Below, piece by piece: positions 4,789 to 39,589 of a DNA stretch of 64,000 nucleotides (positions are counted from its first letter, which is position 1; every line of letters starts with the position of its first letter). The DNA is taken from the NCBI GenBank assembly GCA_022563395.1, contig JADFNM010000001.1, forward strand, positions 178,830 through 242,829, given 5' to 3'. A model generated the notes under the pieces. The model saw only the letters and a list, made by a program, of their open reading frames with translations, did no database searches and was not told the origin of the DNA. The position numbers and the translations under genes were made by a program. Source of the stretch: Patescibacteria group bacterium. Its GTDB lineage: Bacteria > Patescibacteriota > Minisyncoccia > Minisyncoccales > UBA10102.

Positions 4789-4881
4789 TCCCTCGACCGC
4801 CCCCAACGGTTGATGCAGTACCCCAGGAGCTATACGTACGATGCGTATGGCTCTTTTTCATTTCAGTTCCCATGCGTTTTC

Positions 4882-4889
4882 TGTATAAT
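4882..4889 (+). promoter_or_regulatory. Extended -10 element TGTATAAT only 7 nt upstream of the ATPase ATG, suggesting a leaderless transcript
   Basis: TGTATAAT at 4882-4889 with the ATG at 4896. No Shine-Dalgarno sequence. Confidence 0.35.
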
Positions 4890-4895
4890 ACAAGA

Positions 4896-11278: not shown

Positions 11279-11287
11279 CGATAATGG

Positions 11288-15053: not shown

Positions 15054-15117
15054 GTTTCACTATTGTATCACAGCACCAAGGTTTGAAAAATGCCTCATTT
15101 TTTGCTAGTATTGCTGC

Positions 15118-16598: not shown

Positions 16599-16603
16599 TC
16601 ATT

Positions 16604-17590: not shown

Positions 17591-17635
17591 ATTCTTTACT
17601 TTCTAATAAACTTGTACTGTAAAAACAATCAAAGA

Positions 17636-17668
17636 ATCGCCAAATAGGCGGTTTTTTGGTAAGGTAGA
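17636..17668 (+). promoter_or_regulatory. Conserved hairpin-T6-GGTARRRT promoter module (ATCGCCAAATAGGCGGTTTTTTGGTAAGGTAGAGT), 4 nt before the ATG
   Basis: One of at least 9 copies of CGCCnnnnnnGGCGGTTTTTTGGTAGAAT located 5-20 nt upstream of start codons. Confidence 0.6.
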
Positions 17669-17671
17669 GTT

Positions 17672-17860
17672 ATGAGGGGCATTTACAGCATAACAAAGGG
17701 ACAATTGATTACACTATGGTTTTTTGGAACTATTGGTTGGCTTTTCGCTGGTCTCGTTTTGCTTAATGAAATTATCAGTGCCCTCCTGTATATTTTTTTG
17801 ATTCCGTTTATTCTTATTTTCTATACTATTGGTTGGAGAAATAGTAAAAAGAAAAAATAG
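17672..17860 (+). CDS. Small membrane protein (62 aa, 2 TM)
   Basis: Hydrophobic 62-aa ORF immediately downstream of the promoter module. Confidence 0.45.
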   Translation: MRGIYSITKGQLITLWFFGTIGWLFAGLVLLNEIISALLYIFLIPFILIFYTIGWRNSKKKK

Positions 17861-17900
17861 TGAATAGCAGAGTAGGGGAGAAATAATCTATTATCTACCT

Positions 17901-18494
17901 ATGAAGAGGAAAACTAAAAAAAGTACAGAGCTTACTACTAAGGAAGATTTGGGTAGCGACGAGGGATACTTGGAAAGTGAAGCGGTAGTAAAGCCTCCAG
18001 AAAAAGATAGTTTATTAAAGAGAATCCTATCGAGATTAGGCATGGGCGCCTTAGTCGTTGGTGGTGGCGCACTCTTTAGTGTAATTACTATTTTACAATT
18101 TTTAGTTACTGCTATCATTGGTTTAGGAATGATATGGTGGGCAGTAGTCTTATTTTTAGACGGCTCCATTATTTTGGGCCTATTGGTTCTTTTAATCGGG
18201 ACCCCAATAGCTATTGGATTAACCCACTTTTTCTTTTTCTTCTTCCTGGCGATAGGAATCCTTGCAACGATAATATGGGGAGTTGCTAACCTATTTGGTG
18301 TCGGTCTTTCTTTTGGTAATGCCTGGGATATTATTTGGCTGGTTATTGAGGTAGTGCTGCTTGGGGGTATGGCTTTTCTGGGAGTAAGTGGATTGATTGA
18401 AGCGATAAAAGAAAAGAGGGTAGCAGAGTTTTTTAAAGGAAATTGGTTCTATCTTTTACTCTTTGCATTTCTTTTTTGGTTATTTTTTCTCTAA
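17901..18494 (+). CDS. Hypothetical polytopic membrane protein
   Basis: 197 aa with a charged N-terminus followed by about 5 TM helices. Confidence 0.45.
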   Translation: MKRKTKKSTELTTKEDLGSDEGYLESEAVVKPPEKDSLLKRILSRLGMGALVVGGGALFSVITILQFLVTAIIGLGMIWWAVVLFLDGSIILGLLVLLIGTPIAIGLTHFFFFFFLAIGILATIIWGVANLFGVGLSFGNAWDIIWLVIEVVLLGGMAFLGVSGLIEAIKEKRVAEFFKGNWFYLLLFAFLFWLFFL

Positions 18495-18518
18495 GAGAAA
18501 CCAGTAAAACATCATAGT

Positions 18519-18830
18519 ATGGTCAAAAAAATCTATAGAGCAAATAATAGAGATGGCATTCTTATTGTGTTTGAGGATGGAAAACAAGTCGGTTTAACTG
18601 ATATAATGCGTGGTGTCCTACAGAACACATTCCGTACCCAGTTGGAGAATATAAAAATGCACCCTATCCCTCAGGAAGAAGGGGCATTAGAGACGAGACC
18701 TGATGAAGTAACAGAGGTTATACAAAAAGAAACTGGCTATTATTTAGAGGTTTCGGGAGATAAAGGGGATTATGATATTTCCGTTTCTCCTGAGGAGCTT
18801 AAAACTCTAATTTTTCTTGATGATAAATAA
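18519..18830 (+). CDS. Hypothetical protein (103 aa)
   Basis: ORF with plausible coding composition. Paired with the next ORF across a 2-nt gap. Confidence 0.35.
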   Translation: MVKKIYRANNRDGILIVFEDGKQVGLTDIMRGVLQNTFRTQLENIKMHPIPQEEGALETRPDEVTEVIQKETGYYLEVSGDKGDYDISVSPEELKTLIFLDDK

Positions 18831-18832
18831 AT

Positions 18833-19060
18833 ATGTATCTTGATATTGTTCTCGGTTTTTATAATCGTGCTGATGGTGGCTATGCACCGTGGTTTATGAT
18901 TTTTGAGCGTGATGGAGGTAATACCAGGGAGATTCCATTTGATTGCAAAGAGACTGCTCAATCAGAAAAAGAAGCAATACGCATTGCAAAAGCACACGCA
19001 CTAAAGATACTGGAAGAAAGATACTCCTCATCCGTCCAAGTTCGCTTTAGAGAAAAGTAG
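18833..19060 (+). CDS. Hypothetical protein (75 aa)
   Basis: Immediately follows the previous ORF. Acidic small protein. Confidence 0.35.
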   Translation: MYLDIVLGFYNRADGGYAPWFMIFERDGGNTREIPFDCKETAQSEKEAIRIAKAHALKILEERYSSSVQVRFREK

Positions 19061-19112
19061 GGGATTATCGCACAAAACTATATGCAAAGGTGAACTTGCC
19101 ACCCAATAAAAG

Positions 19113-19130
19113 GGTTCTAACTTCGTCCAG
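19113..19130. repeat. GGTTCTAACTTCGTCCAG boundary motif (copy 1; about 34 bp near-identical to the copy at 19815)
   Basis: CAATAAAAGGGTTCTAACTTCGTCCAGTGCCCC at 19100-19135 versus the same sequence with one mismatch at 19802-19840. The two copies flank the P-loop kinase gene as direct repeats. Confidence 0.7.
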
Positions 19131-19218
19131 TGCCCCCGGCTGCTAATTTTAAGCTTAGATTCTAAGCACCCTATCGTGGAGTTAGAACTATGGGTGATTT
19201 TTTGATAAAGTGAACAAT

Positions 19219-19725
19219 ATGAAAAAGAAATTGAGATTCATCTTACTAAACGGGCCAATAGGTTCGGGTAAATCCACTACTGCCAATCTTCTGCAAAGCA
19301 AATTGAAAAGAACTGCTATATTGAGTGTGGAAGACATTAGACAACTTATTTCTGATTTCAAGCACAACAGAGAAGACCATCTCCTTACGTGGAAAATTAT
19401 CCATAGTATGTGTGATGAATATTTCAAAAATGGAATAAGTGTGTTGCTTGAACAGTCCTATTGTTCCAAAGATAATGTTAATCAATTTCTGCGTCTTGCA
19501 AAAAAGCACAAGTGCTCCATAGGTTTCTATCATCTTCAAGCACCAAGAAGTATTTTACTTGAAAGAATTAAGCAACGAAAGAAAGACCATAAGACTTCAA
19601 AAGCTAAAATAATAAGTAATATTAAAAAACACGAAGAAACGACCTACCCAGACGCTATTGTTATTGATACTTCTGAAATGAAACCGGTCGAAGTCGCTAA
19701 GCTTATTTTGAATGATTTAAAGTGA
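19219..19725 (+). CDS. P-loop NTPase/kinase (AAA_33/zeta-toxin-like nucleotide kinase fold); ORF also opens at GTG 19210
   Basis: Walker A LNGPIGSGKST and about 170 aa, kinase-sized. Flanked by direct repeats. Confidence 0.5.
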   Translation: MKKKLRFILLNGPIGSGKSTTANLLQSKLKRTAILSVEDIRQLISDFKHNREDHLLTWKIIHSMCDEYFKNGISVLLEQSYCSKDNVNQFLRLAKKHKCSIGFYHLQAPRSILLERIKQRKKDHKTSKAKIISNIKKHEETTYPDAIVIDTSEMKPVEVAKLILNDLK

Positions 19726-19814
19726 TTGGAGAAATAGTGTAACGTGGGGTGGGGTAATTTGTGTTAAGATGAGCTCAAACTATAGGCAAACCCTGACTTT
19801 CCTTGCAATAAAAG

Positions 19815-19832
19815 GGTTCTAACTTCGTCCAG
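19815..19832. repeat. GGTTCTAACTTCGTCCAG boundary motif (copy 2)
   Basis: Direct repeat of 19113-19130. Followed by the palindrome GCTTAAACGAGATTTAAGC at 19849-19867 and a promoter module. Confidence 0.7.
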
Positions 19833-19883
19833 TACCCCCTGCCATGATTGCTTAAACGAGATTTAAGCAATATGAGAAAAAGA

Positions 19884-19916
19884 ATCGCCATGCAGGCGGT
19901 TTTTTGATAGAGTAGG
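19884..19916 (+). promoter_or_regulatory. Hairpin-T6-promoter module (ATCGCCATGCAGGCGGTTTTTTGATAGAGT)
   Basis: Same module as at 17636. The ATG at 19920 follows 3 nt after GATT. Confidence 0.6.
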
Positions 19917-19919
19917 ATT

Positions 19920-20195
19920 ATGAAAAAGATTCATTTCTTCCTAGACGAATTCCACCACGGGGCTGTGAACCATGTGGTACATTTTACTGGCTTTACGCTC
20001 CTTGGATATGGATTAGGCATAGAGAACTGGTGGATTGTTATCCTCTCTCCTTTTGTCATGGAGATGGGTCATCTTTACAACTACTCTACGGGTAGAGACA
20101 GACACCATGCTATTCGCATCATTCCAATGCAGATAATAGCATGGCTCATCTTTGTAGGAATCGTATACTTACTTACAAGATTGTTTAGTTCATAG
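19920..20195 (+). CDS. Small membrane protein (91 aa)
   Basis: Hydrophobic helices, with His/Glu residues inside predicted helices. Confidence 0.4.
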   Translation: MKKIHFFLDEFHHGAVNHVVHFTGFTLLGYGLGIENWWIVILSPFVMEMGHLYNYSTGRDRHHAIRIIPMQIIAWLIFVGIVYLLTRLFSS

Positions 20196-20238
20196 AAGTT
20201 AAATTTGGAATATAAAACTCATCACTTAGCCTTATCCT

Positions 20239-20269
20239 GGTTCTAACGTCGTTCACGACACGCAGCTAG
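20239..20269. repeat. GGTTCTAACGTCGTTCACGACACGCAGCTAG boundary motif (left flank of the HExxH gene)
   Basis: A 31-bp near-identical direct repeat recurs at 21636-21666, on the other side of ORF 20315-21577. Confidence 0.7.
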
Positions 20270-20314
20270 TTTTAGAGGTTTGACGTGTTTGTGGATGCTT
20301 TGGTAAAATGAAAT

Positions 20315-21577
20315 ATGGAAAATAATTTTTATAGTAAAGGGCAAAGTTTAGTTGGTATAGCTATTATTTCAGTCATTATTAGCTTAATAGTAATAGGTGG
20401 TTTATATTTTTATTTTTCAAAACAAATCCCAGAAGTGTCTAAAATTTCCGAAAAACAAGCCGAAGAAATAATTCAACCAGAAGAGGTTATTCTTCCATCT
20501 GAAGAGTTACCCAAAGAAGAAATTGCTCCAGAGAAGAAAGTTGTAGAAATCTCAATTAAGGCTCCCAAGGAAACGGAGCTAGAAGCCCCCGCACCCCAAT
20601 CACCGCGCAAACCCTTTCCACCAACTGTTAGGATTGAGGCAAATCCAAGCACAGTGCCATCTGGAACACCAGTTACTCTTTCTTGGACTTCTGAAAACGC
20701 AGATTCTTGTATTGCAAAAGACGATTGGTCAGGATCGTTGGAGCTTTCTGGGCAAAGAACAGTTACTCCTCCTAGATCCATATCATACTATCCTGTAGAA
20801 TGCCGGAATCCATTCGGTATCGCATCATATTCTGTAACTATATATGTAGAGTCTATTGCACCTTTACCCTCAGAGGATGCGCCATTAACACCTAAAGAAG
20901 GATTTAGTCTACTTGTTGTCTTCACTTACGAAGATACACCACTAGATTCTCAGATTAAAGAGGACTTATGTACCGGATCTGGCACAAATAAGTTTTCCTA
21001 TCTTCCAAAATGGTTCAAACGTGAAGCAAGCAGATACGGCGTTTCATTCTCAATGACGGTACAATGTCTTGATCAACAAGTTGAACTATCGCAGGATGTT
21101 ATTGAGACAACAAACACCTGTAAGGGTGGTCTCGGAGGTACATTCACTTGTCCATATGACAAAACAAAAGCAAAAAGTTATCTCGAACAAACCATTCCAT
21201 TACTACAGAATTATGATGTTGTGACGATTATGCATTATAAGCCTTATTCTTATGAATTTGGGGCTGATTCAGACGGTTCTGGGGGAAAATATAATTATAT
21301 ATACCTCGCAAAAGGCCCAGTTATCGACGGAGTCCAATATTATAACCCCAATGTAGGAAACGAAGGCAACCATGCTTTTGCTGCTGCACATGAAAGTCTC
21401 CATAATCTAGGAGCATCTGACTACTACTTTCAGGGTTCCGGATACAAATGTTTGATAGAATCTGATCCTACTTTAATTTATAATAGCAGGTATATAATGT
21501 GTGCTGCTGCTAGGGAAGATCCTTTTAGTAGTTATGTAATTTCTCCTGAGACTGCAAAAGAACTTGGATGGAGATAA
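20315..21577 (+). CDS. Membrane-anchored protein with a Pro/Glu-rich linker, an Ig/CARDB-like domain and a C-terminal HExxH (zincin-like) domain
   Basis: N-terminal TM, an EEIAPEKK linker, a PSTVPSGTPVTLSWTSENADSC beta-sandwich-like segment, and AAAHESLHNLGASDYY. Confidence 0.5.
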   Translation: MENNFYSKGQSLVGIAIISVIISLIVIGGLYFYFSKQIPEVSKISEKQAEEIIQPEEVILPSEELPKEEIAPEKKVVEISIKAPKETELEAPAPQSPRKPFPPTVRIEANPSTVPSGTPVTLSWTSENADSCIAKDDWSGSLELSGQRTVTPPRSISYYPVECRNPFGIASYSVTIYVESIAPLPSEDAPLTPKEGFSLLVVFTYEDTPLDSQIKEDLCTGSGTNKFSYLPKWFKREASRYGVSFSMTVQCLDQQVELSQDVIETTNTCKGGLGGTFTCPYDKTKAKSYLEQTIPLLQNYDVVTIMHYKPYSYEFGADSDGSGGKYNYIYLAKGPVIDGVQYYNPNVGNEGNHAFAAAHESLHNLGASDYYFQGSGYKCLIESDPTLIYNSRYIMCAAAREDPFSSYVISPETAKELGWR

Positions 21578-21635
21578 ATTCAAGCTATATTAAGAAGTCG
21601 TATGACGAGAATGTGAGCTCCTCACATACCAAAAG

Positions 21636-21666
21636 GGTTCTAACTTCGTCCACGACACGCAGCTAG
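21636..21666. repeat. GGTTCTAACTTCGTCCACGACACGCAGCTAG boundary motif (right flank)
   Basis: Direct repeat of 20239-20269. Confidence 0.7.
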
Positions 21667-21690
21667 CAGTTCTGAATAGCAAAAATCGCA

Positions 21691-22074
21691 ATGCAAGAAA
21701 ACAAACTAACGATTCAAATTAACAAACCTATTGTAGAGGTTTTTGCTTTTACGACGAATCCGCAAAACACGCCTTTGTGGCTTGACTCAGTAGTTACTGA
21801 ACAAGTGAATGAGTGGCCAGCAAGACAAGGGAGTATTTATAAGAATCAAGATACAGATGGAAACTGGTCAGAGTATGTCGTAAGTGAGTGGAGAGAAAAC
21901 GAAATGTTTGTATGGGACAAAAAGAATAGTAATTACCATGTTAGGTATATCTTTACGCCAGTAGACGAAAATATCACAGAACTTGAATACTATGAATGGG
22001 TAGATACAGGAGAGCTTGATAAACCCTTTACCCAGAAAATACTAGAAAAGCTAAAGCGCGTTTTGGAAAATTAG
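21691..22074 (+). CDS. Hypothetical protein, possibly SRPBCC/START-like fold
   Basis: 127 aa, about the size of a small ligand-binding fold. Weak match only. Confidence 0.3.
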   Translation: MQENKLTIQINKPIVEVFAFTTNPQNTPLWLDSVVTEQVNEWPARQGSIYKNQDTDGNWSEYVVSEWRENEMFVWDKKNSNYHVRYIFTPVDENITELEYYEWVDTGELDKPFTQKILEKLKRVLEN

Positions 22075-22240
22075 TTCTAAATGAGACACGAGATACTACG
22101 CCTATCCAGTGTCTCATTTGTCTCATTTTGTGCTAAAATGACCCCGACCGAGACGGGTAGATGAGACACCCCTAGAAAGCCCCAGAATCCCTCTTAAACC
22201 TCATGTTCCAGACCAAGGGTGCTAAAGCCAAACATAAAAC

Positions 22241-22810
22241 ATGATATCTCACCCATCTATCAAGGCCATCTTTATACCAGGAAATGATGGCGGTACAACG
22301 CAGGACCAGTGGTTTCCGTATGCCAAACGTGAACTTAAAAAGCTTGGTCTTGCAGTAAGGGCAGAAACTTTTCCTGACCCCATTCTTGCAAGGGAACAAT
22401 ACTGGATCCCTTTCTTGAAAGAGCTTGGCGCTGACGAGAAGACCATCCTTATAGGACATTCATCGGGAGCAGTCGCTGCAATGAGATTTGCAGAGCAGAA
22501 CAAAATTCTGGGATCGGTGTTGATTGGGGCCTGCTACACTGACCTTAATGACGAGATGGAAAAGAAAAGCGGGTATTACGACCGCCCCTGGGATTGGGAG
22601 GCAATCAAAGCGAATCAAGAGTGGATTATCCAATATGCCTCTATTGACGATCCATACATTCCTGTTGAGGAAGCTCGGCATATCCATACACAACTTGGTA
22701 CAGAATATTACGAGTATAAAGACCAGGGACACTTTGGAGAACCCACAAGGCCTAAACCAGAGTTTCCAGAGATGATAGAGGCAATCAGAAAAAAGCTATC
22801 CCAGGACTAA
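22241..22810 (+). CDS. Alpha/beta hydrolase, RBBP9/YdeN-like serine hydrolase
   Basis: 189 aa with nucleophile-elbow GHSSG (ILIGHSSGAVAA) and downstream Asp/His residues. Confidence 0.6.
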   Translation: MISHPSIKAIFIPGNDGGTTQDQWFPYAKRELKKLGLAVRAETFPDPILAREQYWIPFLKELGADEKTILIGHSSGAVAAMRFAEQNKILGSVLIGACYTDLNDEMEKKSGYYDRPWDWEAIKANQEWIIQYASIDDPYIPVEEARHIHTQLGTEYYEYKDQGHFGEPTRPKPEFPEMIEAIRKKLSQD

Positions 22811-22920
22811 GATTCTCTGCACCAGCATTCACGCAACGGGACATTCGTCTCTGAGAGACTCAGTCTCGATGAGTTCTAACATCGTCCAAGCCCCGCAGCA
22901 TACTAATACAAGAAGCCAAT

Positions 22921-22990
22921 GGTTCCTAAATGAAATTAAGGATTCTTTAATTTCATTTAGGAGATATGCGCTCTAAATAAGGGGGACAAA
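22921..22990. repeat. Type-B palindromic element (GGTTCCTAAATGAAATTAAGGA...TTAATTTCATTTAGGAGATATGCGCTCTAAATAAGGGGGACAAA)
   Basis: Family recurs at 9545, 31388, 33579, 39471 and 44907. The 30 bp upstream (CTAATACAAGAAGCCAATGGTTCC) also matches the copy at 44888. Confidence 0.8.
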
Positions 22991-23108
22991 ACTTGTGTAA
23001 ATCGGATGTGCACAACAAGGATTTTGAGAATATCATTAACTTTTTAGGCAAATGATTTATAATAAAGATGATAGATAAAAATGAACAGGATGATAACAAC
23101 TTAGAAAA

Positions 23109-24422
23109 ATGAGAGCAAAAATCCCCTTTATCTTCATTGTTGTTTCCCTTATGTTTGTCAGCATGTTTGTCGGCGCTTTTTTAGTCGGAGAGGTTAAGGC
23201 GCAGACAAAAGATTCCCAAGAGCTGTCAAAGGTTTTAGTGATTGACATTGAAGGAGAGATTCGCGCCGGCACGGTTCAGTTTGTAAAGCGCGCTTTGACA
23301 AAGGCCCAAGCTGGCGACTTTGAACTTTTTCTTATTCAACTGAACACCCCAGGTGGGCTCTTAAAGGCCACCGAAGAGATCAGCCGGCTTTTGCTGGACA
23401 GCAAAATACAAACCGCCGTGTTTGTTCATAAAAACGGCGGCTGGGCATTTTCGGCCGGCACTTTTATTCTTCTGTCTGCAGAAATTGCAGTTAGCCATCC
23501 CAATGCCTCAATTGGTGCGGCTCAGCCGCGCGCTTTGGGTATTGGGGAAGTCGCGGAGCCTGATGAAAAAATTATTAAAGCCTCAAGCATTTGGATGAAA
23601 TCATTAGCTGAAGCTCGCGGACGAAACCTCGAGGTCGCGGAAAAATTCGTCCTGGAAAATCTAACATTAAGCGGTAAAGAGGCACACGAACAAAATATTA
23701 TTAATTTCACCGCCGTATCTTTGGATGAACTTCTCAACAAGCTTAAATTTAAAGACGCCGCCATAGAAGAAGTAACGCCAAATCTCTTAGAGCAAATCCT
23801 GTCTTTTCTTTCCATTTCTTTTCTAATTCCGCTTTTACTTGGCATTGGGTCTTTAGGGTTGTTCTTTGTATTTCGCACAGGCGAGGTGGAAATTGGAATT
23901 TTCGCTATCGCTGCTCTTCTTTTAGGACTGTGGGGAATGGGGGCTATCAATCTTTCGGTGCTGGGAGCAACGCTTTTGTTCTTTGGTATTGCTCTTATTA
24001 TTCTTGAAATTTTTGTGATGCCCGGATTTGGTGTTTTTGGCATAGCTGGAACCATCGCCTTTCTTTTTGGGATACTCACCTTTGCCCAAGAGCCGTTCTT
24101 ACCAAGCGTTTTTACCAATGCAGCTTTTTGGTTTGTGATGGGGGTGACGTTGGCTGTTTCTGTGTTTTTCATTGTTCTTGGCAGATTGTCGCTTAAAACC
24201 CTAAGGGTAAAGGCCAGGGCTGGTCCGGAGGCTCTCACGGGAGAAACAGCTGTTGTAACCGAAACACTGCATCCCTACGGCAAGGTAAAGATTAACCGTG
24301 AGGACTGGGTGGCAAAAAATATTTCAGATAAAGAAGTTATTGAAGTGGGAGAGAAGGTAAGGGTTGTAAATATCCAGGGAAATACTATAATAGTAAAAGG
24401 GTCGAAAACTAGCATGCTGTAA
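23109..24422 (+). CDS. NfeD-family membrane-bound serine protease (ClpP-class)
   Basis: Signal/TM segment, ClpP-like domain LNTPGG...GWAFSAGTFILLSAE, TM segments, and a C-terminal OB-like beta domain. Confidence 0.75.
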   Translation: MRAKIPFIFIVVSLMFVSMFVGAFLVGEVKAQTKDSQELSKVLVIDIEGEIRAGTVQFVKRALTKAQAGDFELFLIQLNTPGGLLKATEEISRLLLDSKIQTAVFVHKNGGWAFSAGTFILLSAEIAVSHPNASIGAAQPRALGIGEVAEPDEKIIKASSIWMKSLAEARGRNLEVAEKFVLENLTLSGKEAHEQNIINFTAVSLDELLNKLKFKDAAIEEVTPNLLEQILSFLSISFLIPLLLGIGSLGLFFVFRTGEVEIGIFAIAALLLGLWGMGAINLSVLGATLLFFGIALIILEIFVMPGFGVFGIAGTIAFLFGILTFAQEPFLPSVFTNAAFWFVMGVTLAVSVFFIVLGRLSLKTLRVKARAGPEALTGETAVVTETLHPYGKVKINREDWVAKNISDKEVIEVGEKVRVVNIQGNTIIVKGSKTSML

Positions 24423-24437
24423 AAACTTGTAAATATT

Positions 24438-25205
24438 ATGGAATTTTTGTTTAATTTATTTTTCTCAACTGGAGGAATTATTGTTATCGTCGCCATCATT
24501 CTTTTCTCAGCTGTAAAGATTGTCAGGGAATATGAGCGGGCAGTTATTTTTCGCTTGGGACGCTTGGTGGGCACGCGTGGACCCGGTCTTTTTCTGCTTA
24601 TCCCAATGATTGAAAAAATGGTCAAGCTTGATCTTCGGATTATTACCCTTGATGTGCCGGCCCAAGAGGTTATCACCCGCGACAACATACCCATAACGGT
24701 TGACGCGGTGCTGTATTTTAAGGTTTCTGACCCTATTCGTGCAGTGGTTGAGGTTGAAAACTTTCTGAAAGCAACTTCGCAAATCGCCCAGACATCGCTT
24801 AGGGGAGTTGCCGGCGAGGCGGCTTTTGACGAGATTCTGGCCGAGCGTGAGAAGATTAACACCAAGCTTCACAAAATTATTGACATTGCCACGGACCCTT
24901 GGGGAATTAAAGTCTCGGCGGTGGAAATAAAGCACGTTGAGGTGCCAGAAGCCATGCAGCGGGCAATTGCCAAACAGGCGGAAGCTGAGCGGACAAGACG
25001 GGCAAAAGTAATTTTGGCCGAGGGAGAATTTCAGGCGGCTCAAAAACTAAAGGATGCCGGTGAAATTCTCGGCGCCAACCCAATTGTGTTTCGCTATCTT
25101 GAAACCATAGCAGAAGCGGCTAAAGAAAAAAGCAATACCATCATCTTCCCGGCCGAGATGCTTGACTTGGTCAAAAAAATCTCCCGAAAATCGGACATGC
25201 AGTGA
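24438..25205 (+). CDS. SPFH/band-7 protein (stomatin-like), cognate partner of NfeD
   Basis: N-terminal TM, band-7 core (VPAQEVITRDNIPITVDAVLYFKV), and a coiled-coil C-terminus. Classic nfeD-stomatin operon. Confidence 0.8.
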   Translation: MEFLFNLFFSTGGIIVIVAIILFSAVKIVREYERAVIFRLGRLVGTRGPGLFLLIPMIEKMVKLDLRIITLDVPAQEVITRDNIPITVDAVLYFKVSDPIRAVVEVENFLKATSQIAQTSLRGVAGEAAFDEILAEREKINTKLHKIIDIATDPWGIKVSAVEIKHVEVPEAMQRAIAKQAEAERTRRAKVILAEGEFQAAQKLKDAGEILGANPIVFRYLETIAEAAKEKSNTIIFPAEMLDLVKKISRKSDMQ

Positions 25206-25457
25206 AAAACCACTTGAAAAATTAAGTGGCAGAGAAAAATAGAACTTGCTGGTCCTCTTTAGAGACACTACCCCTATCTAGTGTTTCATTTGTCTCATTC
25301 TGCCTTATTTCTTCTTGGTTGAAAGTGCCCCGTCCCCGTCAGAATTAGTTTCTTTAGTAGCCCCAATTTCCCCTTAAAATTCCGAGGGGATAAGGTGCAA
25401 GACTCGCCTAGAGAGCATTAGTGCTTAAACGAGATTTAAGCAAACTCATAATCTAAT

Positions 25458-26033
25458 ATGCACACAGGAGTTCCATTACCATCAAATCCTATGGAAGAAT
25501 TAGAACAAAACAAAAACCTCGCCGAGGCAGCACAGCTTACCAAGCAAGAGCGGAAACAGTTAAAGAAACAGCGTAAGCGAGAAGAGCGTCAACAGGGACG
25601 CAGTCAAGAGAAAATGAAAAAGATAATTACTATTGCTGTAATTATCTTGGTTGTGGGGGGAGGAATCTTTGCTCTGGGCTGGTTTTTCTCAACCGGCCCG
25701 AGCCTGCCGCCAACCTCACAGCTAAATCATTCTGAACTATCGCCGCCAGCTCATATTGTCACAAGTCCTATCCCAGCAGCCATCCAGAAGCATATGCTTG
25801 AACACGCCGATGGAGGAGGCAAGCCCGGGGTTATTATTCAATACAATTGCGAAGATTTTGCATGTGAGCAGGATCTGGTAGACAACTTAACTGAGCTCGT
25901 AAAGCGGTATCCAGCCAACGTATACCTTGCTCCAAATAATTATGACGGAAAGATTATCTTAACCAAGCTTGGCAGGCGACAAATCTTAGAGGAGTTTAAC
26001 CAACGAACAATAGAGGACTTTATTGGACGATAA
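25458..26033 (+). CDS. Membrane-anchored hypothetical protein with HxxEH and CEDFAC motifs
   Basis: Charged N-terminus, one TM helix, then an extracytoplasmic domain containing HMLEHADGGG and YNCEDFACE. Confidence 0.4.
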   Translation: MHTGVPLPSNPMEELEQNKNLAEAAQLTKQERKQLKKQRKREERQQGRSQEKMKKIITIAVIILVVGGGIFALGWFFSTGPSLPPTSQLNHSELSPPAHIVTSPIPAAIQKHMLEHADGGGKPGVIIQYNCEDFACEQDLVDNLTELVKRYPANVYLAPNNYDGKIILTKLGRRQILEEFNQRTIEDFIGR

Positions 26034-26087
26034 ACAGCCTGCAGGGTCGTGCAGGTAAGTTGCATATACGTTAAGGTGAAGTAACAT

Positions 26088-26816
26088 ATGAACAAAACCA
26101 TAATAATCATTATTATTGCTTTAGGAGCAGTTGTCGGGGCATACTTCCTCTTTCAGGGAGGGGATGGGGTTCCACAGGAATCTGGTACGCAAACTCCTGC
26201 GTCGCAAAACCAAGAGCGGATTATATCCATTCGCAACCATCAGATTACAGAACCCACGCTTGTTATCTCAGTTGGTGACACGGTGACCTGGAGAAACCAG
26301 GATAATCTTGCGGGATTCCCGTATGATAATCACTCGCCAACGAGCGGCACGATTGATTCTACGGGCGCTCAGGGCCAAAGAGGCGTGGTTCCCAACAGCG
26401 GAAGCGGCATAGCCGATGGTACGTTTGAGCTTGCTCTGGGTTCTGGTGAGTCACAAAGCTTCACCTTTACTGAAGCTGGCACCTATACTTACTATATCGC
26501 AGAACACCCTTTAGTGAGCGGCGAGGGAAAGATTATTGTGGAGGAAAAGAAGGTACCAGTAAGCATGAGTGCTCGCAGTTTTGCCTTTAGCCCCGAAACG
26601 CTCAAAGCAAGGGTTGGGGAAAGTATAGTGCTTGAGGTGCAGGCAACCGGACAACATACCTTCACCATTGATGAATTGGGCGTGAATGTTTCCCTGCCGC
26701 ATGGCAAAACAACGAGAGTGGAATTTACGCCGTCTCAAACAGGAACCTTCACTTACTACTGCGCCGTTCCCGGCCATCGTAATGCGGGGCAAATCGGCAC
26801 TCTAACGGTCGAATAA
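26088..26816 (+). CDS. Secreted tandem cupredoxin-like protein
   Basis: Signal peptide and two repeats ending in GTYTYYIAEHP and GTFTYYCAVPGHRNAGQ. Only the second keeps the Cys/His copper-ligand positions. Confidence 0.5.
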   Translation: MNKTIIIIIIALGAVVGAYFLFQGGDGVPQESGTQTPASQNQERIISIRNHQITEPTLVISVGDTVTWRNQDNLAGFPYDNHSPTSGTIDSTGAQGQRGVVPNSGSGIADGTFELALGSGESQSFTFTEAGTYTYYIAEHPLVSGEGKIIVEEKKVPVSMSARSFAFSPETLKARVGESIVLEVQATGQHTFTIDELGVNVSLPHGKTTRVEFTPSQTGTFTYYCAVPGHRNAGQIGTLTVE

Positions 26817-26845
26817 CTTATAACTAATAACTCATCACAAACACT

Positions 26846-27058
26846 ATGAAATGGTCACCAATTTTACACGGAGTTGCCGCAGTTTCCGGAGTCGTTGGCT
26901 TTTTGGTCTTAGTCATGTGGTGGATAGTTCTTTTGAGGGAAGGCGCATCGCCTTTTTCGGCAGAACATTTGTATGACGACGCAATAGCTTTACTTTTGCT
27001 CTCAATCGCGTTTGGCATAGGCACTCTTATCCACCAAAAACAGGAGCGACAGCAATAA
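26846..27058 (+). CDS. Small membrane protein (70 aa)
   Basis: Two hydrophobic helices. Confidence 0.35.
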   Translation: MKWSPILHGVAAVSGVVGFLVLVMWWIVLLREGASPFSAEHLYDDAIALLLLSIAFGIGTLIHQKQERQQ

Positions 27059-27064
27059 TACCGT

Positions 27065-28474
27065 ATGTTTTTTCGACCCGTTCTGGGTGTTTTTCTGGTT
27101 TTTGGTCTTCTCGTCCTTGGGGGCTGGTTTGTACTGCAAAAAAAGGGTAACGTTAAAACCCCAGCCGTGGACGATATTCAAGAGAAAGTTCAGGTTGCAG
27201 CCAGCTACTCTTTTTTTGTAACAGTTGACGGGATAGGACTCAATGTTGATGTGGCAGATACGCCAGAGAAAAAGGCCCAAGGGCTTTCTGGAAGAATTGG
27301 CATGGGAGAAGACGAGGGCATGCTGTTTGTGTATGATGCGCCGGGGCTTTATACTTTTTGGATGAAGGATATGCTATTTTCCATTGATATTATTTGGATC
27401 AATGAAAATTACGAAATTGTTGATATCGCAAAAAATGCTTTGCCTGATTCATTTCTTCAGACTTTTCAACCACAAAAACCAGCGCAGTATGTGTTGGAGG
27501 TAAATGCGGGCTTTTCCGATAGAAATAATATCCAAATCGGCAGTAGAGTAGATTTTTCAGAAATTTTTATTGGTAGTAAATTTAAAGAACTTGTTTTTGT
27601 TGTAGATGCCAAAAACGATGAGGTTATTGTTCTAACCAAAGAAGGTGGAATCATAAAACGAATCAAAGTTGATCATAGTCCGCACGATATTGCTCTCTCG
27701 CCCAATAGCAAGTTTATCGTTACGGCTAATTTTCACAGCAATACCATAAACATCATTGATGTTCAGAGTTTATCTTTACAAAAAACCATCGCAACTGGCG
27801 ATGGGGCCCATGGCGTAGTATTCAGCCCGGATGGCAGGTTTCTTTTCGTTGTAAACGCAAGAGAAGACACGCTTTCCATTATTGAAACCGCAACCTTTAC
27901 CCAACAAACTAAGATCAATGTAGGAAGTTATCCAGAATATGTGGGTGTTACCAAAGATGGCTCCAAAGTTTTTACCACCAATCTTAGTGATGGGGGATCA
28001 ATAACCGTATTGCAGAACATTGGCTTTGAATCAAAAGTAATAAAGGAAATATCTTCTGATGTTGATCCTCACGGCTGGGCAATTTCGCCAGATGGCTCAA
28101 AAGTCATTATTACCACGCTGGGCAGTAACTCTGCTTATCTTTATGATAGCAGCACCTTTGAAGAAATAAGCCACTTTGATATTGGTGCGCCCTCAGAGTT
28201 TGCCGCTTTCCGCACGAACAACGAAGTGTGGGTTACCAATATTGGAGCTAATTACATTTCTATTATTGAGATTACGCAGAATACAATTCTTGACCAAATT
28301 GCGGTTGGAGAAACCCCTCACGGCATTTCTTTTTCATCAGACAAAACGCTTGCATTTGTTCCTTTATATCAACCAGGTGAAGTTGTTATAATTGACACGG
28401 TAGAACGAAAAGTAATCAAAAAAGTAAAAGTTGGCGAAGAACTTCATAATGCAGTGGTAGTAAAATCGAGGTAA
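27065..28474 (+). CDS. Secreted DUF192 domain fused to a YVTN-type beta-propeller
   Basis: DUF192-like FVYDAPGLYTFWMKDMLFSIDIIWIN, then repeated 40-residue blades (DIALSPNSKFIVTAN, VVFSPDGRFLFVVN, WAISPDGSKVIITT). Confidence 0.6.
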   Translation: MFFRPVLGVFLVFGLLVLGGWFVLQKKGNVKTPAVDDIQEKVQVAASYSFFVTVDGIGLNVDVADTPEKKAQGLSGRIGMGEDEGMLFVYDAPGLYTFWMKDMLFSIDIIWINENYEIVDIAKNALPDSFLQTFQPQKPAQYVLEVNAGFSDRNNIQIGSRVDFSEIFIGSKFKELVFVVDAKNDEVIVLTKEGGIIKRIKVDHSPHDIALSPNSKFIVTANFHSNTINIIDVQSLSLQKTIATGDGAHGVVFSPDGRFLFVVNAREDTLSIIETATFTQQTKINVGSYPEYVGVTKDGSKVFTTNLSDGGSITVLQNIGFESKVIKEISSDVDPHGWAISPDGSKVIITTLGSNSAYLYDSSTFEEISHFDIGAPSEFAAFRTNNEVWVTNIGANYISIIEITQNTILDQIAVGETPHGISFSSDKTLAFVPLYQPGEVVIIDTVERKVIKKVKVGEELHNAVVVKSR

Positions 28475-28704
28475 CAGCGCTACAATTTAAAGGCGCAGGC
28501 AGGAGATATGCGCCTCTAGGCAAGGAGAGAACAAAACTTGGGGCGGGTCGTCTTAGCGGAGAATCCGGCCCGTGGCCCTACTATTTACACGTACTGTTTT
28601 GTGCTATTATATCAATGTAGAACGATTTGAGATTTAGCAGGCTGTAATAGTAAATAAAAGGTTGAACTGCCTGCTAAGATTGAGTAACTACCACTTAGAA
28701 ATAT

Positions 28705-36526: not shown

Positions 36527-37738
36527 ATGTTTTCCTTGCTGAAGAATAAAAAGATTTTAGCTTGGACTTTCTATGATTTTGCCGATACTGCCCTGGCAGC
36601 TCTTTTCTTTACCTTTTTCTGGCCCTTGCTTATCAAAGAACATTTGGGAGGAAATGAATTCCAGATTGGCCTTGTTATGGGTCTTTCGCTTCTTTTCGTA
36701 GCGCTCTTTGTGCCTTTGATAGGAGCAATATCTGACGCCACTGGCAGACGCATGCCAATTCTTATTATATCTACTTTGCTGACCGCTATTTTTGCAGTTC
36801 TTACCGGATACATGGGTTTAGTTGGAGCTTTAATTCTGGGGTTTCTGGTACGGTTTTTGTTCACCGTTGATATTGATCTCTACGACGCTAAACTGGTTGA
36901 TATTGTTGCGCGTTCCAAAATCGGCTTTGTATCCGGCCTGGGAGTTGCCATTGGATATCTTGGCACAATAGTTGGCCTGGCCGTAGCCTATCCATTGCTG
37001 GAGTATTTTGGCTGGGACACGTTGCTTGGCATTCAAGTGATTTTTATTGAAGGGGCGCTCTTTCTGCTTATTTTCTCTCTTCCTCTTTTCTTGTTGGTTA
37101 AAGATAAACCCCTCAAAGAAAAAATACCCTTTCTGTCTGCTTTTCGCAAAGGTCTTAAAGCACTGAAGTTTACCATTACCAACCTTAAACAATTCCCGGC
37201 CTTTGGCAGGTTCCTGCTTGCTTCTTTTATCTACAACGATGCGGTAAATACCACGCTTATATTTTTAGTGCTGTATGCCACAAGCGTTATTGGCCTTCAA
37301 ATCAAGGAGTTTTTCTTTGTTTTTGTCCTTATGGCTTTGGGAGCTGGAGTTGGAGCACTCATATTTGGGTATCTTTCAGGCAGCTTTAGTCCCAAACGAG
37401 CCCTAATCATTGCTCTTGGAATGTGGATTTTTGTCATTGTTTATCTCCTTTTAATCAAAACCTTTGCCAGCATACTTATTGCCGGAATTATAGGAGGGGC
37501 GGCACTTGGAGGCATCTGGACCGCGAATCGGCATATGGTAGTTCTAATCTCGCCATATCGGAAAATAGCTGAGTTTTTTGGCATTGAAGGGTTAACCGAA
37601 CGCCTCTCCGGGGTCTTGGGACCTATTATTTTTGGCGCAATTGTTGTCACGATTGGATACCAAGTTGCTCTTTTCTTTATCCTCTTTTTGTTCATTGCAG
37701 GCCTTGCTCTTCTTTTGAGAGTGCCGCTAAAAACTTGA
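36527..37738 (+). CDS. MFS-type transporter
   Basis: 12 predicted TM helices, a GAISDATGRR loop motif, and duplicated 6-TM halves. Confidence 0.6.
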   Translation: MFSLLKNKKILAWTFYDFADTALAALFFTFFWPLLIKEHLGGNEFQIGLVMGLSLLFVALFVPLIGAISDATGRRMPILIISTLLTAIFAVLTGYMGLVGALILGFLVRFLFTVDIDLYDAKLVDIVARSKIGFVSGLGVAIGYLGTIVGLAVAYPLLEYFGWDTLLGIQVIFIEGALFLLIFSLPLFLLVKDKPLKEKIPFLSAFRKGLKALKFTITNLKQFPAFGRFLLASFIYNDAVNTTLIFLVLYATSVIGLQIKEFFFVFVLMALGAGVGALIFGYLSGSFSPKRALIIALGMWIFVIVYLLLIKTFASILIAGIIGGAALGGIWTANRHMVVLISPYRKIAEFFGIEGLTERLSGVLGPIIFGAIVVTIGYQVALFFILFLFIAGLALLLRVPLKT

Positions 37739-37860
37739 TTAAATTAAAATGGACATATCTCAATTTGTATCTCTTTTCCATCGTGTTGAGAAAAGATATT
37801 GGCAATTGTTCCCATGAGAGCTATACTATTGGTATGCGCTACAGCGTGAAGGGAACAAAT

Positions 37861-38286
37861 ATGGAACTCACTCCGGAGGTCTCCACGTATATTGAGGAGA
37901 AGATAGGAAGCTTGGATAGGTTTATTAAGCATGTGGATTCTGCAGTGCAAGGATGGGTAGAAGTTGGGCGCATTGGCAAGCATCATCAAACAGGAAAGGT
38001 CTGGAGAGCAGAAGTTCAAATTCATCTGCCAGGCAGGTCAATGAGATCGGAAGCTGTGGCCAAAACCATTTTCCTGGCTATCAATGAAGTGAAAGACAAA
38101 TTGCAACGGGAACTCAAACAATATAAAAGGAAACAAGCCACTAAACAGAAAAAGGGGGCTCGCAGCTTTAAACCGCCTTTCCCTTTGAGAAAACCTCCCC
38201 GTCTCAAGGGAAAGGTTCAGAATGTTGGGATTAAACCAATTCGCAAGAAACCTCGTACTCATATGCCACCAGAAGCCCCTAAATAA
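37861..38286 (+). CDS. hpf: Ribosome hibernation promoting factor / RaiA family (ORF opens at 37735)
   Basis: MELTPEVSTYIEEKIGSLDRF...VEVGRIGKHHQTGKVWRAEVQIHLPG. Basic C-terminal extension. Confidence 0.7.
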   Translation: MELTPEVSTYIEEKIGSLDRFIKHVDSAVQGWVEVGRIGKHHQTGKVWRAEVQIHLPGRSMRSEAVAKTIFLAINEVKDKLQRELKQYKRKQATKQKKGARSFKPPFPLRKPPRLKGKVQNVGIKPIRKKPRTHMPPEAPK

Positions 38287-38317
38287 GGGGCTTTTTGGTT
38301 GCATGGGGAGTGGAGTT

Positions 38318-38348
38318 CAAACTTTTGTTGGTTTTTTGGTAGAATGAG
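38318..38348 (+). promoter_or_regulatory. T6-GGTAGAAT promoter module 3 nt before the ATG at 38352
   Basis: GTTGGTTTTTTGGTAGAATGAGAATATG. Confidence 0.5.
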
Positions 38349-38351
38349 AAT

Positions 38352-38705
38352 ATGAATCCAATAGCATTCGCAGTTCTAGCAGCACCAGCTTTTGGTTTGT
38401 GGACCGTATTCCATAAGCTCGCCGCTCCGTATATCAACCAAGTGTTTGGAGCAATTCTTGTGTCGTTCACTGCTGTCATCTTAGGCAGTATTGTTCTGCT
38501 GCCTAGGATAAAAGACGTCCAACTCTTTAGTGACCCGAAAGGAATAATCTTCCTTGTTCTTGCAGGACTAATGGCCTTTGGAATTGATTTCTTTGCACTT
38601 CAGGCATATTCAAAGGGATTACCTCTCACTGTCGGTGGACCTATCATTATCGGAGGAAGTATCGCCGTCGCCGTTAGTATTGGCTTTGTATTAGGAATTT
38701 TTTAA
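38352..38705 (+). CDS. Small 4-TM membrane protein
   Basis: 117 aa, entirely hydrophobic helices. Confidence 0.4.
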   Translation: MNPIAFAVLAAPAFGLWTVFHKLAAPYINQVFGAILVSFTAVILGSIVLLPRIKDVQLFSDPKGIIFLVLAGLMAFGIDFFALQAYSKGLPLTVGGPIIIGGSIAVAVSIGFVLGIF

Positions 38706-38767
38706 AATATCTGCTAGACTATTAATATTCAAGGTCGGCTAATACTTCATTTACTAATATTTATTCC

Positions 38768-38998
38768 ATGAAAAAAACTACATGCAAGACTATGGGTGGC
38801 GTTTGTGACGAGGAGATCCGTGGGGAAACTGCTGAAGAATTGATGGCCAACGGTAAGCAGCACCTTCATGATGCGGCTGAGACCGGCGACGAAGATCACA
38901 AAGGTGTCATTCAAAAAATGGAACAGATGAGCGAAGAAGATCGCAAAAAGTGGGCTGGAGAACTTACGAATAACTTTGATGCACTGGAAGAGGCTTAA
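38768..38998 (+). CDS. DUF1059-like small metal-binding protein
   Basis: 76 aa with MKKTTCKTMGGVCDEE...HLHDAAETGDEDH, a Cys/His pattern typical of DUF1059. Confidence 0.4.
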   Translation: MKKTTCKTMGGVCDEEIRGETAEELMANGKQHLHDAAETGDEDHKGVIQKMEQMSEEDRKKWAGELTNNFDALEEA

Positions 38999-39108
38999 AG
39001 TTAGATCCCGATAGGTAGGAGGGTGTGATCTCTTATTATACTAACCAATCAATCGCCAAACAGGCGGTTTTTTGGTAGAGTAAGGATGGCGAATTTCAGA
39101 GGAGAGAA

Positions 39109-39339
39109 GTGAACGACAAGCACCCAAGAACAGGGGAGAGGCATATGTATATGTACTGGATGCTCAGGATAGCACCCGTAGTGACGATTCTCGTTGTTAT
39201 CAACCTCCTTGTGTGGCGGTTCACCGAATTTAAGGTGATCTTCGGCCCCGGGCTCTCTGGGGTTCTCCTGATTGCCTCTGTGGGTCTGTGGTTTATTGCC
39301 CTCTATGCTTCACGAAATGCTCGATATCGAGCAAGATGA
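39109..39339 (+). CDS. Small 2-TM membrane protein (ORF opens at GTG; an internal ATG at about 39145 is likely)
   Basis: Hydrophobic ORF downstream of the promoter module at 39046-39080. Confidence 0.3.
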   Translation: MNDKHPRTGERHMYMYWMLRIAPVVTILVVINLLVWRFTEFKVIFGPGLSGVLLIASVGLWFIALYASRNARYRAR

Positions 39340-39402
39340 GGGTTCATACCATGATAGGGCGGTGAGATGATATCAATACCCGCTTTTCTTTTACACAAAA
39401 CA

Positions 39403-39420
39403 GGTTCTAACATCGTCCCA
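39403..39420. repeat. GGTTCTAACATCGTCCCA boundary motif copy
   Basis: Matches the consensus GGTTCTAAC[AT]TCGTCC. Followed by palindromic elements. Confidence 0.6.
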
Positions 39421-39440
39421 TAGGGAGAGCCATTGTTGCT

Positions 39441-39545
39441 TAAACGAGATTTAAGCAATATCCATTGAAGTTAATGGTTCCTTAATTTCATTTAGGAGAT
39501 AATCACTAGAATCAATCATGCTTAAACGAGATTTAAGCAGCATGG
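39441..39545. repeat. Composite of three palindromic elements (type A, type B, type A)
   Basis: GCTTAAACGAGATTTAAGC ... GGTTCCTTAATTTCATTTAGGAGATAATC ... GCTTAAACGAGATTTAAGC. Confidence 0.8.
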
Positions 39546-39552
39546 GGAAAAA

Positions 39553-39588
39553 GAATCGCCAGTACGGCGATTTTTTGGTAGAATCAAA
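39553..39588 (+). promoter_or_regulatory. Hairpin-T6-GGTAGAAT promoter module before acpS
   Basis: ATCGCCAGTACGGCGATTTTTTGGTAGAATCAAAT, then ATG. Confidence 0.6.
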
Positions 39589-39589
39589 T

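Follow-up and report, generated by a model that had tools for sequence, protein, structure and literature searches.

A 64-kb stretch of a metagenome-assembled Patescibacteria genome (contig JADFNM010000001.1; "the window" below means this whole stretch of 64,000 nucleotides) contains a recurrent short block, here called the module, in which a GC hairpin, a run of six T (T6) and a -10 box stand close before a start codon. We think that the module is probably an intrinsic terminator of the upstream unit that overlaps an extended -10, sigma-70-type promoter and yields leaderless mRNAs. The sequence anatomy of the module, its positional statistics, the conservation of its pairing and its phylogenetic spread can be read directly from the DNA; from these we infer the termination, the transcription start site and the leaderless translation.

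Scanning the window for the right half of the module, GGYGRTTTTTTGRTARRRT (also written GGYGR-T6-GR-TARRRT), with up to two mismatches gave nine matches, compared to 0.12 expected. The full module, TCGCC-N5-GGCGR-T5N-GRTARRRT, gave six matches, compared to 0.00 expected. All nine lie on the + strand between 17.6 and 39.6 kb, and they are the nine copies that a first-pass annotation of this DNA had listed. That annotation gave every copy the same parts. This is correct for six copies, which we call canonical (17637, 19885, 29974, 31451, 39053 and 39556): an A-tract, the TCGCC-N5-GGCGR hairpin directly abutting T6, then GR and a TAGAAT-like -10. They fold into an A-tract, a 5-bp GC stem, a 5-nt loop and a U-tract at -9.1 to -17.2 kcal/mol. 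The three GTGGAGTTAGAAC-type variants (19173, 31044 and 38318) have the right half only, without the short hairpin against the T-run. An extended -10, TGn plus TAnnnT in the form TG(G/A)TA(G)AAT, is present in nine of nine copies, and in seven of them an ATG follows 5 to 8 nt past the -10. Each copy is described below, together with the number of nucleotides that separate its -10 from the start codon.

17631..17674, + strand: canonical copy 1; A-rich run 17631-17636; hairpin TCGCC-AAATA-GGCGG 17637-17651 (-17.2 kcal/mol, z -7.7); T6 17652-17657; GG; -10 TAAGGT 17660-17665; 6 nt; ATG 17672 of a 62-aa open reading frame (ORF).
19100..19221, + strand: variant copy 2 (19173); GGTGA-T6-GA-TAAAGT 19193-19211; 7 nt; ATG 19219 of an AAA_33/zeta-toxin-like kinase. 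Its GGGTG arm pairs with CCACCC about 85 nt upstream (~19100), enclosing a long nested hairpin of 13 bp (GGTTCTAACTTCG / CGTGGAGTTAGAAC); it is the sole variant copy that pairs.
19879..19922, + strand: canonical copy 3; hairpin 19885-19899 (-13.0 kcal/mol); T6; GA; -10 TAGAGT 19908-19913; 6 nt; ATG 19920 of a 91-aa ORF.
29968..30022, + strand: canonical copy 4; hairpin 29974-29988; T5G; GG; -10 TAGAAT 29997-30002; 17-nt leader; ATG 30020 of a prepilin-like protein, whose N-terminus MNKETGFTLIALLI is readable straight from the sequence. A consensus scan marks the copy as promoter-like (TCGCCA-17-TAGAAT); upstream are an ordinary strong terminator (29892-29925) and then an AT-rich hairpin.
31039..31083, + strand: variant copy 5 (31044); GTGGAGTTAGAACTATGGGCGG-T6-GG-TAGAAT, -10 at 31069-31074; 6 nt; ATG 31081 (DUF2007); no significant local hairpin.
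31445..31490, + strand: canonical copy 6, marked terminator-like in the scan; hairpin 31451-31465; T6; GG; -10 TAGGGT 31474-31479; 8 nt; ATG 31488 of a membrane protein.
38310..38354, + strand: variant copy 7 (38318); GTGGAGTTCAAACTTTTGTTGG-T6-GG-TAGAAT, -10 at 38340-38345; 6 nt; ATG 38352 of a 117-aa ORF; 25 nt upstream, an ordinary terminator, GCCCCT-AAATA-AGGGGC-T5 (38275-38297).
39047..39111, + strand: canonical copy 8; hairpin 39053-39067; T6; GG; -10 TAGAGT 39076-39081; probable start GTG 39109.
39550..39598, + strand: canonical copy 9; perfect palindrome ATCGCC-AGTAC-GGCGAT 39555-39571; T6; GG; -10 TAGAAT 39579-39584; 5 nt; ATG 39590 of acpS.

Pfam confirmed two of the gene names proposed earlier, acpS (PF01648) and DUF2007 (PF09413), but the gene at 31488, which had been called ccdA, has no Pfam match at E<=1e-3. 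Leaderless mRNAs had been predicted for the named genes, and the spacing in the seven copies agrees with this. The gene at 30020 has a leader of 17 nt, however, and copy 39053 is also leadered: an ATG 4 nt past its -10 begins an 8-codon ORF only, and the copy probably serves GTG 39109 through a 27-nt leader with GGAG.

To look at the hairpin without selecting for it, we searched metagenomes with a hairpin-blind pattern, TTTTTTGGTAGAAT-RRRNNN-ATG (site type T6-GGTAGAAT-ATG), and analyzed 120 sites. The exact TCGCC-N5-GGCGR abuts T6 in 50 of these (42%), and the same arms enclose another loop, several times with nested hairpins, in 10. Most of the other sites have either a variant stem or another GC hairpin; many of the variants differ by a single base, and at at least 15 sites an unrelated GC hairpin abuts T6. 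In some variants the right side, AGAAGGCGG-T6, stays the same, and its partner is another left arm of greater length (CCGCTTTCT). In the fixed register, 71.8% of cells pair, compared to 67.7±0.5% after column shuffling (none of 500 shuffles reached the observed value) and 43-51% when the register is slid. Cells changed on both sides number 31, compared to 15.4. The effect is modest, since most copies share one stem. Compensatory stems such as ATCGCT/AGCGAT and TCGTC/GACGG are present. The outer stem pair is U-A (29) or U-G (23) in 52 of 52 cases, with no mismatch, and because of the U-G pairs, the pairing fits the sense strand only.

A second set comprised leaderless-type extended -10 sites that had played no part in the selection. 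A T-run is found at 70 of these 165 sites, and a hairpin abuts it at 53 of the 70, compared to 13 of the 95 sites without a T-run. The setting of the module fits as well: the upstream feature is co-oriented in 124 of 128 copies (97%), 16 of these features being tRNA genes, and a divergent neighbor lies upstream of only 4 of 128 (3%), compared to 14% of gene starts overall (p=3e-5). The promoter of dnaX in the window lies in a divergent region.

15085..15120, + strand: dnaX promoter; TTGAAA -35; T6-GC-TAGTAT; 6 nt; ATG 15118; divergent intergenic region; no GC hairpin.

At dnaX, where no co-oriented gene precedes, the layout of T6, extended -10 and leaderless start is thus found without the terminator stem. 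Taken together, the conserved pairing, the U-G pairs on the sense strand, the abutting hairpins, the co-orientation and the stemless dnaX support a hairpin acting in the sense-strand RNA of the upstream unit, as an intrinsic terminator would. The first-pass annotation had suggested that hairpin and T-run double as the terminator of that unit within a promoter block. Every computational test applied agrees with this combined block, in which the promoter would set the transcription start at or beside the ATG: the kept pairing and the co-orientation, TGn, a -35-like TCGCCA at 17 bp, a modal distance of 6 nt to the ATG and the lack of SD use.

An alternative is that the block is a promoter only. 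It would be a strong promoter typical of the lineage, in which an UP-like A-tract and a TCGCCA -35 are joined by a T-rich spacer to an extended -10 with TAGAAT; the palindrome would be incidental or would aid the promoter at the DNA level, and no termination would take place. The lengths of the loop (5 nt) and the T-run (6 nt) are indeed fixed relative to the -10, and a -35 signal is retained in non-canonical copies. Ordinary terminators precede some copies; those at 29892-29925 and 38275-38297 make a terminator role redundant at copies 4 and 7. Depletion of divergent regions relative to hairpin-less promoters is in the right direction but not significant (6.7% versus 13.5%, p=0.18). Other observations also weigh against a terminator. 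The stem has 5 bp, with one U-G pair in about half of the copies, which makes a weak terminator unless the A/U tracts pair. There is no abutting hairpin at 17 of the 70 unselected T-run promoters or at the three variant copies of the window, which have no significant local GC hairpin (z -0.4 to +1.2). Degenerate copies carry more one-sided than compensatory stem mutations, a pattern that also fits decay of a copied sequence. Against a promoter alone stand pairing conserved beyond composition and slid controls, a constant right side that finds partners in alternative left arms, GC hairpins of unrelated sequence directly before the same T6, U-G pairs that suit the sense strand alone, and upstream features, including tRNA genes, that are nearly always co-oriented. 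We consider it unlikely that the module is a promoter only, and continue to favor a terminator overlapping a promoter.

We then considered the promoter part of the module. Since the loop is nearly always 5 nt and the T-run nearly always 6 nt, TCGCCA stands exactly 17 bp from the -10. This hexamer agrees with TTGACA at four of six positions and was picked out by the consensus scan. Whether a -35 is present had been raised by the first-pass annotation, and the answer is divided. In non-canonical copies the TTGACA-match profile peaks at a 17-bp spacer (2.65 versus ~1.5); non-canonical stems keep T at -35 (76%) and A at -30 (56%), and copies with long nested loops have CTGACG, TTGGCG or ATGACG at -35. 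On the other hand, TCGCCA differs from TTGACA at two of six positions, and family-2 stems (CCGCCT-N8-AGGCGG) place a poor hexamer, TATTTA, at -35. The other promoters of the organism have TTGACA-type -35 boxes. TG(G/A)TA(G)AAT is present in 42 of 47 unselected sites with both hairpin and T-run. The third position of the -10 is G in 49% of cases, compared to 14% in other promoters. This preference for TAGAAT marks the class as a distinct family, and double coding of terminator and promoter alone leaves it unexplained, which is a further point against our reading.

The TAGAAT bias speaks for a rival reading, in which TCGCC plus TAGAAT would be read by a second sigma factor with a large accessory regulon; alternatively, ATCGCC-N5-GGCGAT could be an operator bound by a conserved dimeric regulator. 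The invariant arms, their fixed 5-nt spacing and the fixed distance to the -10 suit either version, and in the window the module is confined to the accessory region at 17.6-39.6 kb, while housekeeping genes use TTGACA-type promoters. The half-sites are nearly always 5 nt apart, but a G at -21 (44-58% of copies) breaks the symmetry in about half, and the same arms also enclose loops of 4, 8 and 16-18 nt that contain nested hairpins. Compensatory and unrelated stems exist as well. Moreover, the downstream genes are unrelated in function. The 115 downstream proteins match 119 Pfam families, none with more than 5 members; among these are P-type ATPase, RsgA, Obg, M23 peptidase, GNAT, NUDIX and ABC. 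Given this diversity, the module is not a regulon signal. An operator or a special sigma class seems to us distinctly improbable.

The third part of the proposed function is the leaderless start. Shine-Dalgarno (SD)-like 4-mers precede 9 of 71 gene starts in the window (12.7%) and 14.3% of internal ATG codons; these words are at the control level, in agreement with the earlier statement that SD sequences are absent. A 16S rRNA 3' end, sought for its anti-SD, is present in none of the loci retrieved. A TAnnnT ending 5-9 nt ahead of the start is found at 20 of the 71 starts, compared to 1.9% of internal ATGs, and 13 of the 20 have TGn, which occurs in none of the controls. A -10 box 6-8 nt from the start is an accepted computational signature of bacterial leaderless genes and is used by GeneMarkS-2 (PMC6028130). 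We measured the same distance in 145 module copies from many genomes, taking the first ORF-opening ATG downstream of the -10. In 72 of them the ATG lies 6-9 nt past the -10, and 6 nt stands out as a narrow peak (37 copies); leaders of 10-77 nt precede the ATG in the other copies. With about half of the copies elsewhere leadered, the module by itself does not imply a leaderless mRNA, as had been assumed. Leaderless spacing is also found at promoters of the window that lack the canonical hairpin.

4881..4898, + strand: promoter of a P-type cation ATPase; TGTATAAT; 6 nt; ATG 4896; leaderless type, as the first-pass annotation had noted; no hairpin.
32426..32463, + strand: hairpin-less promoter; perfect TTGACA-17-TATAAT; 6 nt; ATG 32461.
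34540..34591, + strand: same architecture with an unrelated stem; terminator GCCCCGCCC-CAAAA-GGGCGGGGC; T5; GG; ATTAAAT; ATG 34589.

The promoter at 32426..32463 indicates that the main sigma factor reads canonical -35 and -10 boxes and that leaderless spacing is general. ATG 32461 is probably the true, leaderless start of the gene ending at 33306; GTG 32260, its start in the ORF list, overlaps the preceding gene (region 32343-32463). The site at 34540..34591 shows that the layout does not require the canonical stem.

A different signal accompanies leaders. The motif AAAGGTC(G) stands 8-20 nt past the -10 in leadered module copies and promoters, close to where a leader of 25-45 nt is predicted to begin. 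The motif is found in the window at ~3760, 33665, 38735 and 51700, and elsewhere at loci L022, L027, L057, L080, L081, L101, L107, L110, L123 and others. It may be a conserved signal of the 5' untranslated region for leadered genes of genomes without SD sequences.

How far does the module extend beyond this genome? A scan for the exact pattern, taking one genome per species, gave at least 120 genome stretches among the matches listed, with an estimated <1 chance match. Among the matches listed, nearly all are Parcubacteria, Nealsonbacteria, Staskawiczbacteria, Paceibacterota, Minisyncoccales or generic metagenome-assembled genomes (MAGs) of Patescibacteria, also known as the candidate phyla radiation (CPR). 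The module is thus widespread in relatives, and contigs from Hainich groundwater carry it as well; its absence from relatives, which the first-pass annotation had named as a refutation, is decisively contradicted. The density of exact canonical copies is about one per 17 kb in CPR DNA taken without selection; the 64-kb window has 6. In 130 copies, conservation beyond the core covers an A-run preceding the stem (-6..-1), the two A that open the loop and an A-rich stretch after the -10; it ends within ~6 nt of the block, and ~35 nt are conserved in all. A phage origin was rejected, with just 1 module match in viral contigs (IMG/VR). Comparison of strains for selection on the module gave no information: the window's dnaX protein is also found on European Nucleotide Archive contig ERZ23499034 scaffold_66 and four further contigs, but the five same-species contigs are 99.5-100% identical to the window. 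Full-text literature searches turned up neither the motif nor any account of promoters, terminators or leaderless genes in the CPR; absence from the literature searched is no proof of absence. Other short sequences, TTACGTCGCACTACGCATCAAT and GCTTGCCCTGAATTTAT, recur beside module hairpins in various genomes (L024, L026, L038, L098 and L124); these could be further conserved elements between genes, or the ends of small-RNA genes.

The similarity between module copies could also arise by descent rather than by selection at each site, if the module were a dispersed, copying repeat, a "mobile promoter" like the repetitive extragenic palindromic (REP) sequences or miniature inverted-repeat transposable elements (MITEs). 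The copies are near-identical, degenerate ones are mostly mutated on one side, three window copies have the ~75 nt before them in common (an AT hairpin and ATGGGGAAAAAGAA), and the module is itself an imperfect palindrome, as in REP elements. REP and MITE families are species-specific, however, while the 29-nt pattern is common to many genera and orders. Only ~35 nt are conserved, terminal repeats or target duplications were not seen, and the module stands at a precise distance from the start codon. The Pfam matches listed for the window proteins include no transposase and no RAYT-like gene; for 52 of these proteins, scanned together, the matches listed are the top 25 of 74 families. We regard a dispersed repeat as very improbable.

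The combined reading, a terminator overlapping a promoter, suggests the following model. Two overlapping signals would occupy ~45 bp at tail-to-head junctions of these very small genomes. In the upstream RNA, A5-6 / UCGCC-N5-GGCGR / U6 would form a short GC hairpin with a U-tract, an intrinsic terminator, and the flanking A- and U-tracts would lengthen the stem and make the terminator potentially bidirectional. As DNA, the same bases would be a strong promoter for the main sigma-70-type holoenzyme: an A-tract where an UP element would lie (-41..-36), TCGCCA over -35..-30, a 17-bp spacer ending in T6, a TGn extended -10, TAGAAT at -12..-7 and an A-rich discriminator of 6 nt. For about one copy in two overall, and for 7 of 9 in the window, the A of the ATG would fall at +1 to +3, giving a leaderless mRNA to be translated without an SD sequence, a signal that this genome does not use. 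The left arm would be held constant by having to work as a -35 box a set distance from the -10, and the right arm by having to pair with the left. This double coding would best explain the near-invariant stem, the 5-nt loop and T6.

The two signals may even be coupled. The module would then be a transcriptional punctuation mark: a polymerase that releases its RNA in U6 would restart on the next extended -10 without leaving the DNA, and the genes would give a chain of mRNAs. We find this rather unlikely. A co-directional array would be expressed as separate mRNAs, each beginning at its own AUG; where genomes lack SD sequences and have minimal machinery, this may be the main way to make a start codon recognizable. 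Polymerase itself, or a factor specific to the CPR, would read the near-invariant stem. A block shared across the lineage would be a portable expression signal, so that horizontally acquired genes work at once in CPR recipients.

Next to nothing is known of how transcription begins and ends, or how translation starts, in CPR bacteria. Most of them are uncultured, and many standard factors are missing from their genomes. The module gives a testable prediction, that a large share of CPR genes is leaderless. A -10 rule could correct gene starts in thousands of MAGs; in this window it shifts those of the ATPase (4896), the kinase (19219), the genes at 31488 and 32461, and acpS (39590). The module may also be a ready-made promoter-terminator part for genetic tools in CPR co-cultures. 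Finally, it would be a natural case of two signals in the same bases, and this double coding may explain why a terminator stem is conserved in sequence.

Genes in the window are tightly packed, with the + strand predominating. The GC content is 44-47% over the window (~45%), with a dip to 38% between 16 and 22 kb. Housekeeping genes occupy the flanks (mraZ/mraW, mur ligases, ftsW, dnaB, recR, cysS, dnaX and L21), and numerous short or uncharacterized ORFs occupy 17-40 kb. ARAGORN and Rfam give only two tRNA genes, tRNA-Glu at 3555 and tRNA-Gln at 16603, and we rejected tRNA genes or tRNA remnants as the basis of module sites. With the Rfam 15 covariance models, only these two tRNAs reach the gathering score, and there is no credible match at E<=5 across 16-40 kb; a known RNA family was rejected on this basis. 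The last 17 nt of tRNA-Gln (16603-16676), AATCCTAGTCCCGCAGC, recur 14.3 kb downstream at 30989-31010. Together with the low GC (38%, 16-22 kb), this repeat may be the remnant of a tRNA-integrated island; an integrase gene for it was not found in 16-40 kb.

A second conserved CPR element of ~35 nt, (A)AACAG-GTTCTAAC-ATCGTCC-N5-9-GGAGC, also recurs in the window.

19113, 19815, 20239, 21636, 22872, 31315, 32356 and 39403, all + strand: copies of the second CPR element.

We counted 110 copies of this element in loci L006-L245, with arrays of short genes favored (L233 has 8 in 8 kb). It is always co-oriented with the downstream gene and lies 0-260 nt past the upstream stop. The element either starts 33-37 nt ahead of a module hairpin or has its GGAGC end a few nucleotides before a TTGACA -35, which places it at ~-70 to -40 of promoters. 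It has no Rfam match and is vaguely like a tRNA 3' end. Its possible roles include those of an upstream promoter element, a site for a regulator or a site of recombination.

The second element bears on the idea, implied by the word "cassette" in the first-pass annotation, that the module marks an integron-like boundary, with an attC-type site followed by a cassette promoter. The GTTAGAAC of variant module copies is the reverse complement of GTTCTAAC in the nearby element, the two form an attC-like long hairpin at 19113-19195, and the region has short ORFs. But no integrase or attC-type structure was found in 16-40 kb, an inverse partner is present at just one of eight GTTCTAAC elements, only one element is palindromic, the core words do not match RYYYAAC/GTTRRRY, and there is no match to an RNA or DNA family. 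In many genomes the module is at ordinary junctions, including those before housekeeping genes such as obg and rsgA. For lack of an integrase in 16-40 kb and of fitting core sites, we rejected this explanation, which we hold to be scarcely credible; the attachment of the module to cassettes is not supported.

Other repeats of the window stand apart from the module. AT-rich hairpin repeats, CCTAAA-N5-TTTAGG, GCTTAAACGAGATTTAAGC and CCTTAA-N5-TTAAGG, are found window-wide directly after stop codons, often as back-to-back inverted pairs that make 40-nt perfect palindromes.

9545-9600, 10575-10630, 11233-11290, 14028-14054, 19849-19867, 22918-22966, 25422-25440, 29938-29956, 31385-31434, 33576-33624, 39437-39502, 44904-44926, 47765-47814, 51429-51475 and 57435-57484: AT-rich hairpin repeats.

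None of these repeats appeared in the sequence flanking the modules of other genomes, so a family confined to the species, REP-like or of terminators, is probable. Exact DnaA-box words, TTATCCACA, are present at 9563 and 29929 (+ strand) and 12740 (- strand), two of which share a repeated context, TTAAGTTATCCACACCTAAAT. Inside ORF 51736-52215, at 51829-52193, is a GC-rich tandem repeat of 39-nt period (CCNCCNCC-type); the listed strand of this ORF may be wrong, or the gene may encode a Gly/Pro-rich repeat protein.

Which parts of the module are known from elsewhere? Like intrinsic (Rho-independent) terminators, it has a GC-rich stem-loop directly before a T-run, downstream of co-oriented genes and tRNA genes, and its flanking A-tract mirrors the T-tract, as in bidirectional intrinsic terminators. 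Ordinary terminators share shape only, however, while the stem sequence, the loop (5) and the T-run (6) of the module are nearly fixed across genera, and its T-run doubles as a promoter spacer. Campylobacter and Helicobacter have extended -10 (TGn) sigma-70 promoters with a T-rich -16 region. The TTTTTTGnTAnAAT layout and the weak or non-canonical -35 are similar; unlike those promoters, the module has a GC palindrome at -35..-21, a TAGAAT -10 consensus and, by our prediction, a start codon at the transcription start. Several repeats are active as promoters or terminators: Correia elements of Neisseria, inverted pairs of DNA uptake sequences (DUS) acting as terminators, REP sequences and bacterial interspersed mosaic elements (BIMEs), and "putative mobile promoters." These too are short multicopy intergenic palindromes able to terminate or start transcription, but they are species- or genus-specific and variably placed, whereas the module crosses orders and its position relative to the ATG is exact to the base. 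In integrons, too, attC sites with cassette promoters form repeated structured elements between short co-oriented ORFs; the module, however, has no integrase in 16-40 kb, no R''/R' core pair and no imperfect palindrome of attC length.

For the start codon, a parallel exists in Actinobacteria and Deinococcus, whose leaderless genes belong to "group C" of GeneMarkS-2 (PMC6028130, PMC3160421, PMC4007540) and share the -10 box 6-8 nt ahead of the start codon and the lack of an SD sequence. CPR bacteria differ in belonging to another phylum, and in this window internal operon genes also lack an SD sequence; in the module, moreover, the promoter is fused to a conserved terminator hairpin, and the extended -10 plus T6 is invariant. 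Intrinsic terminators, extended -10 promoters with T-rich upstream sequence and leaderless genes are all known ingredients. What is new is the fusion of a terminator, an extended -10 promoter and a leaderless start in one block and the near-identity of this block across much of the CPR, along with the prevalence of leaderless expression in the CPR that it implies.

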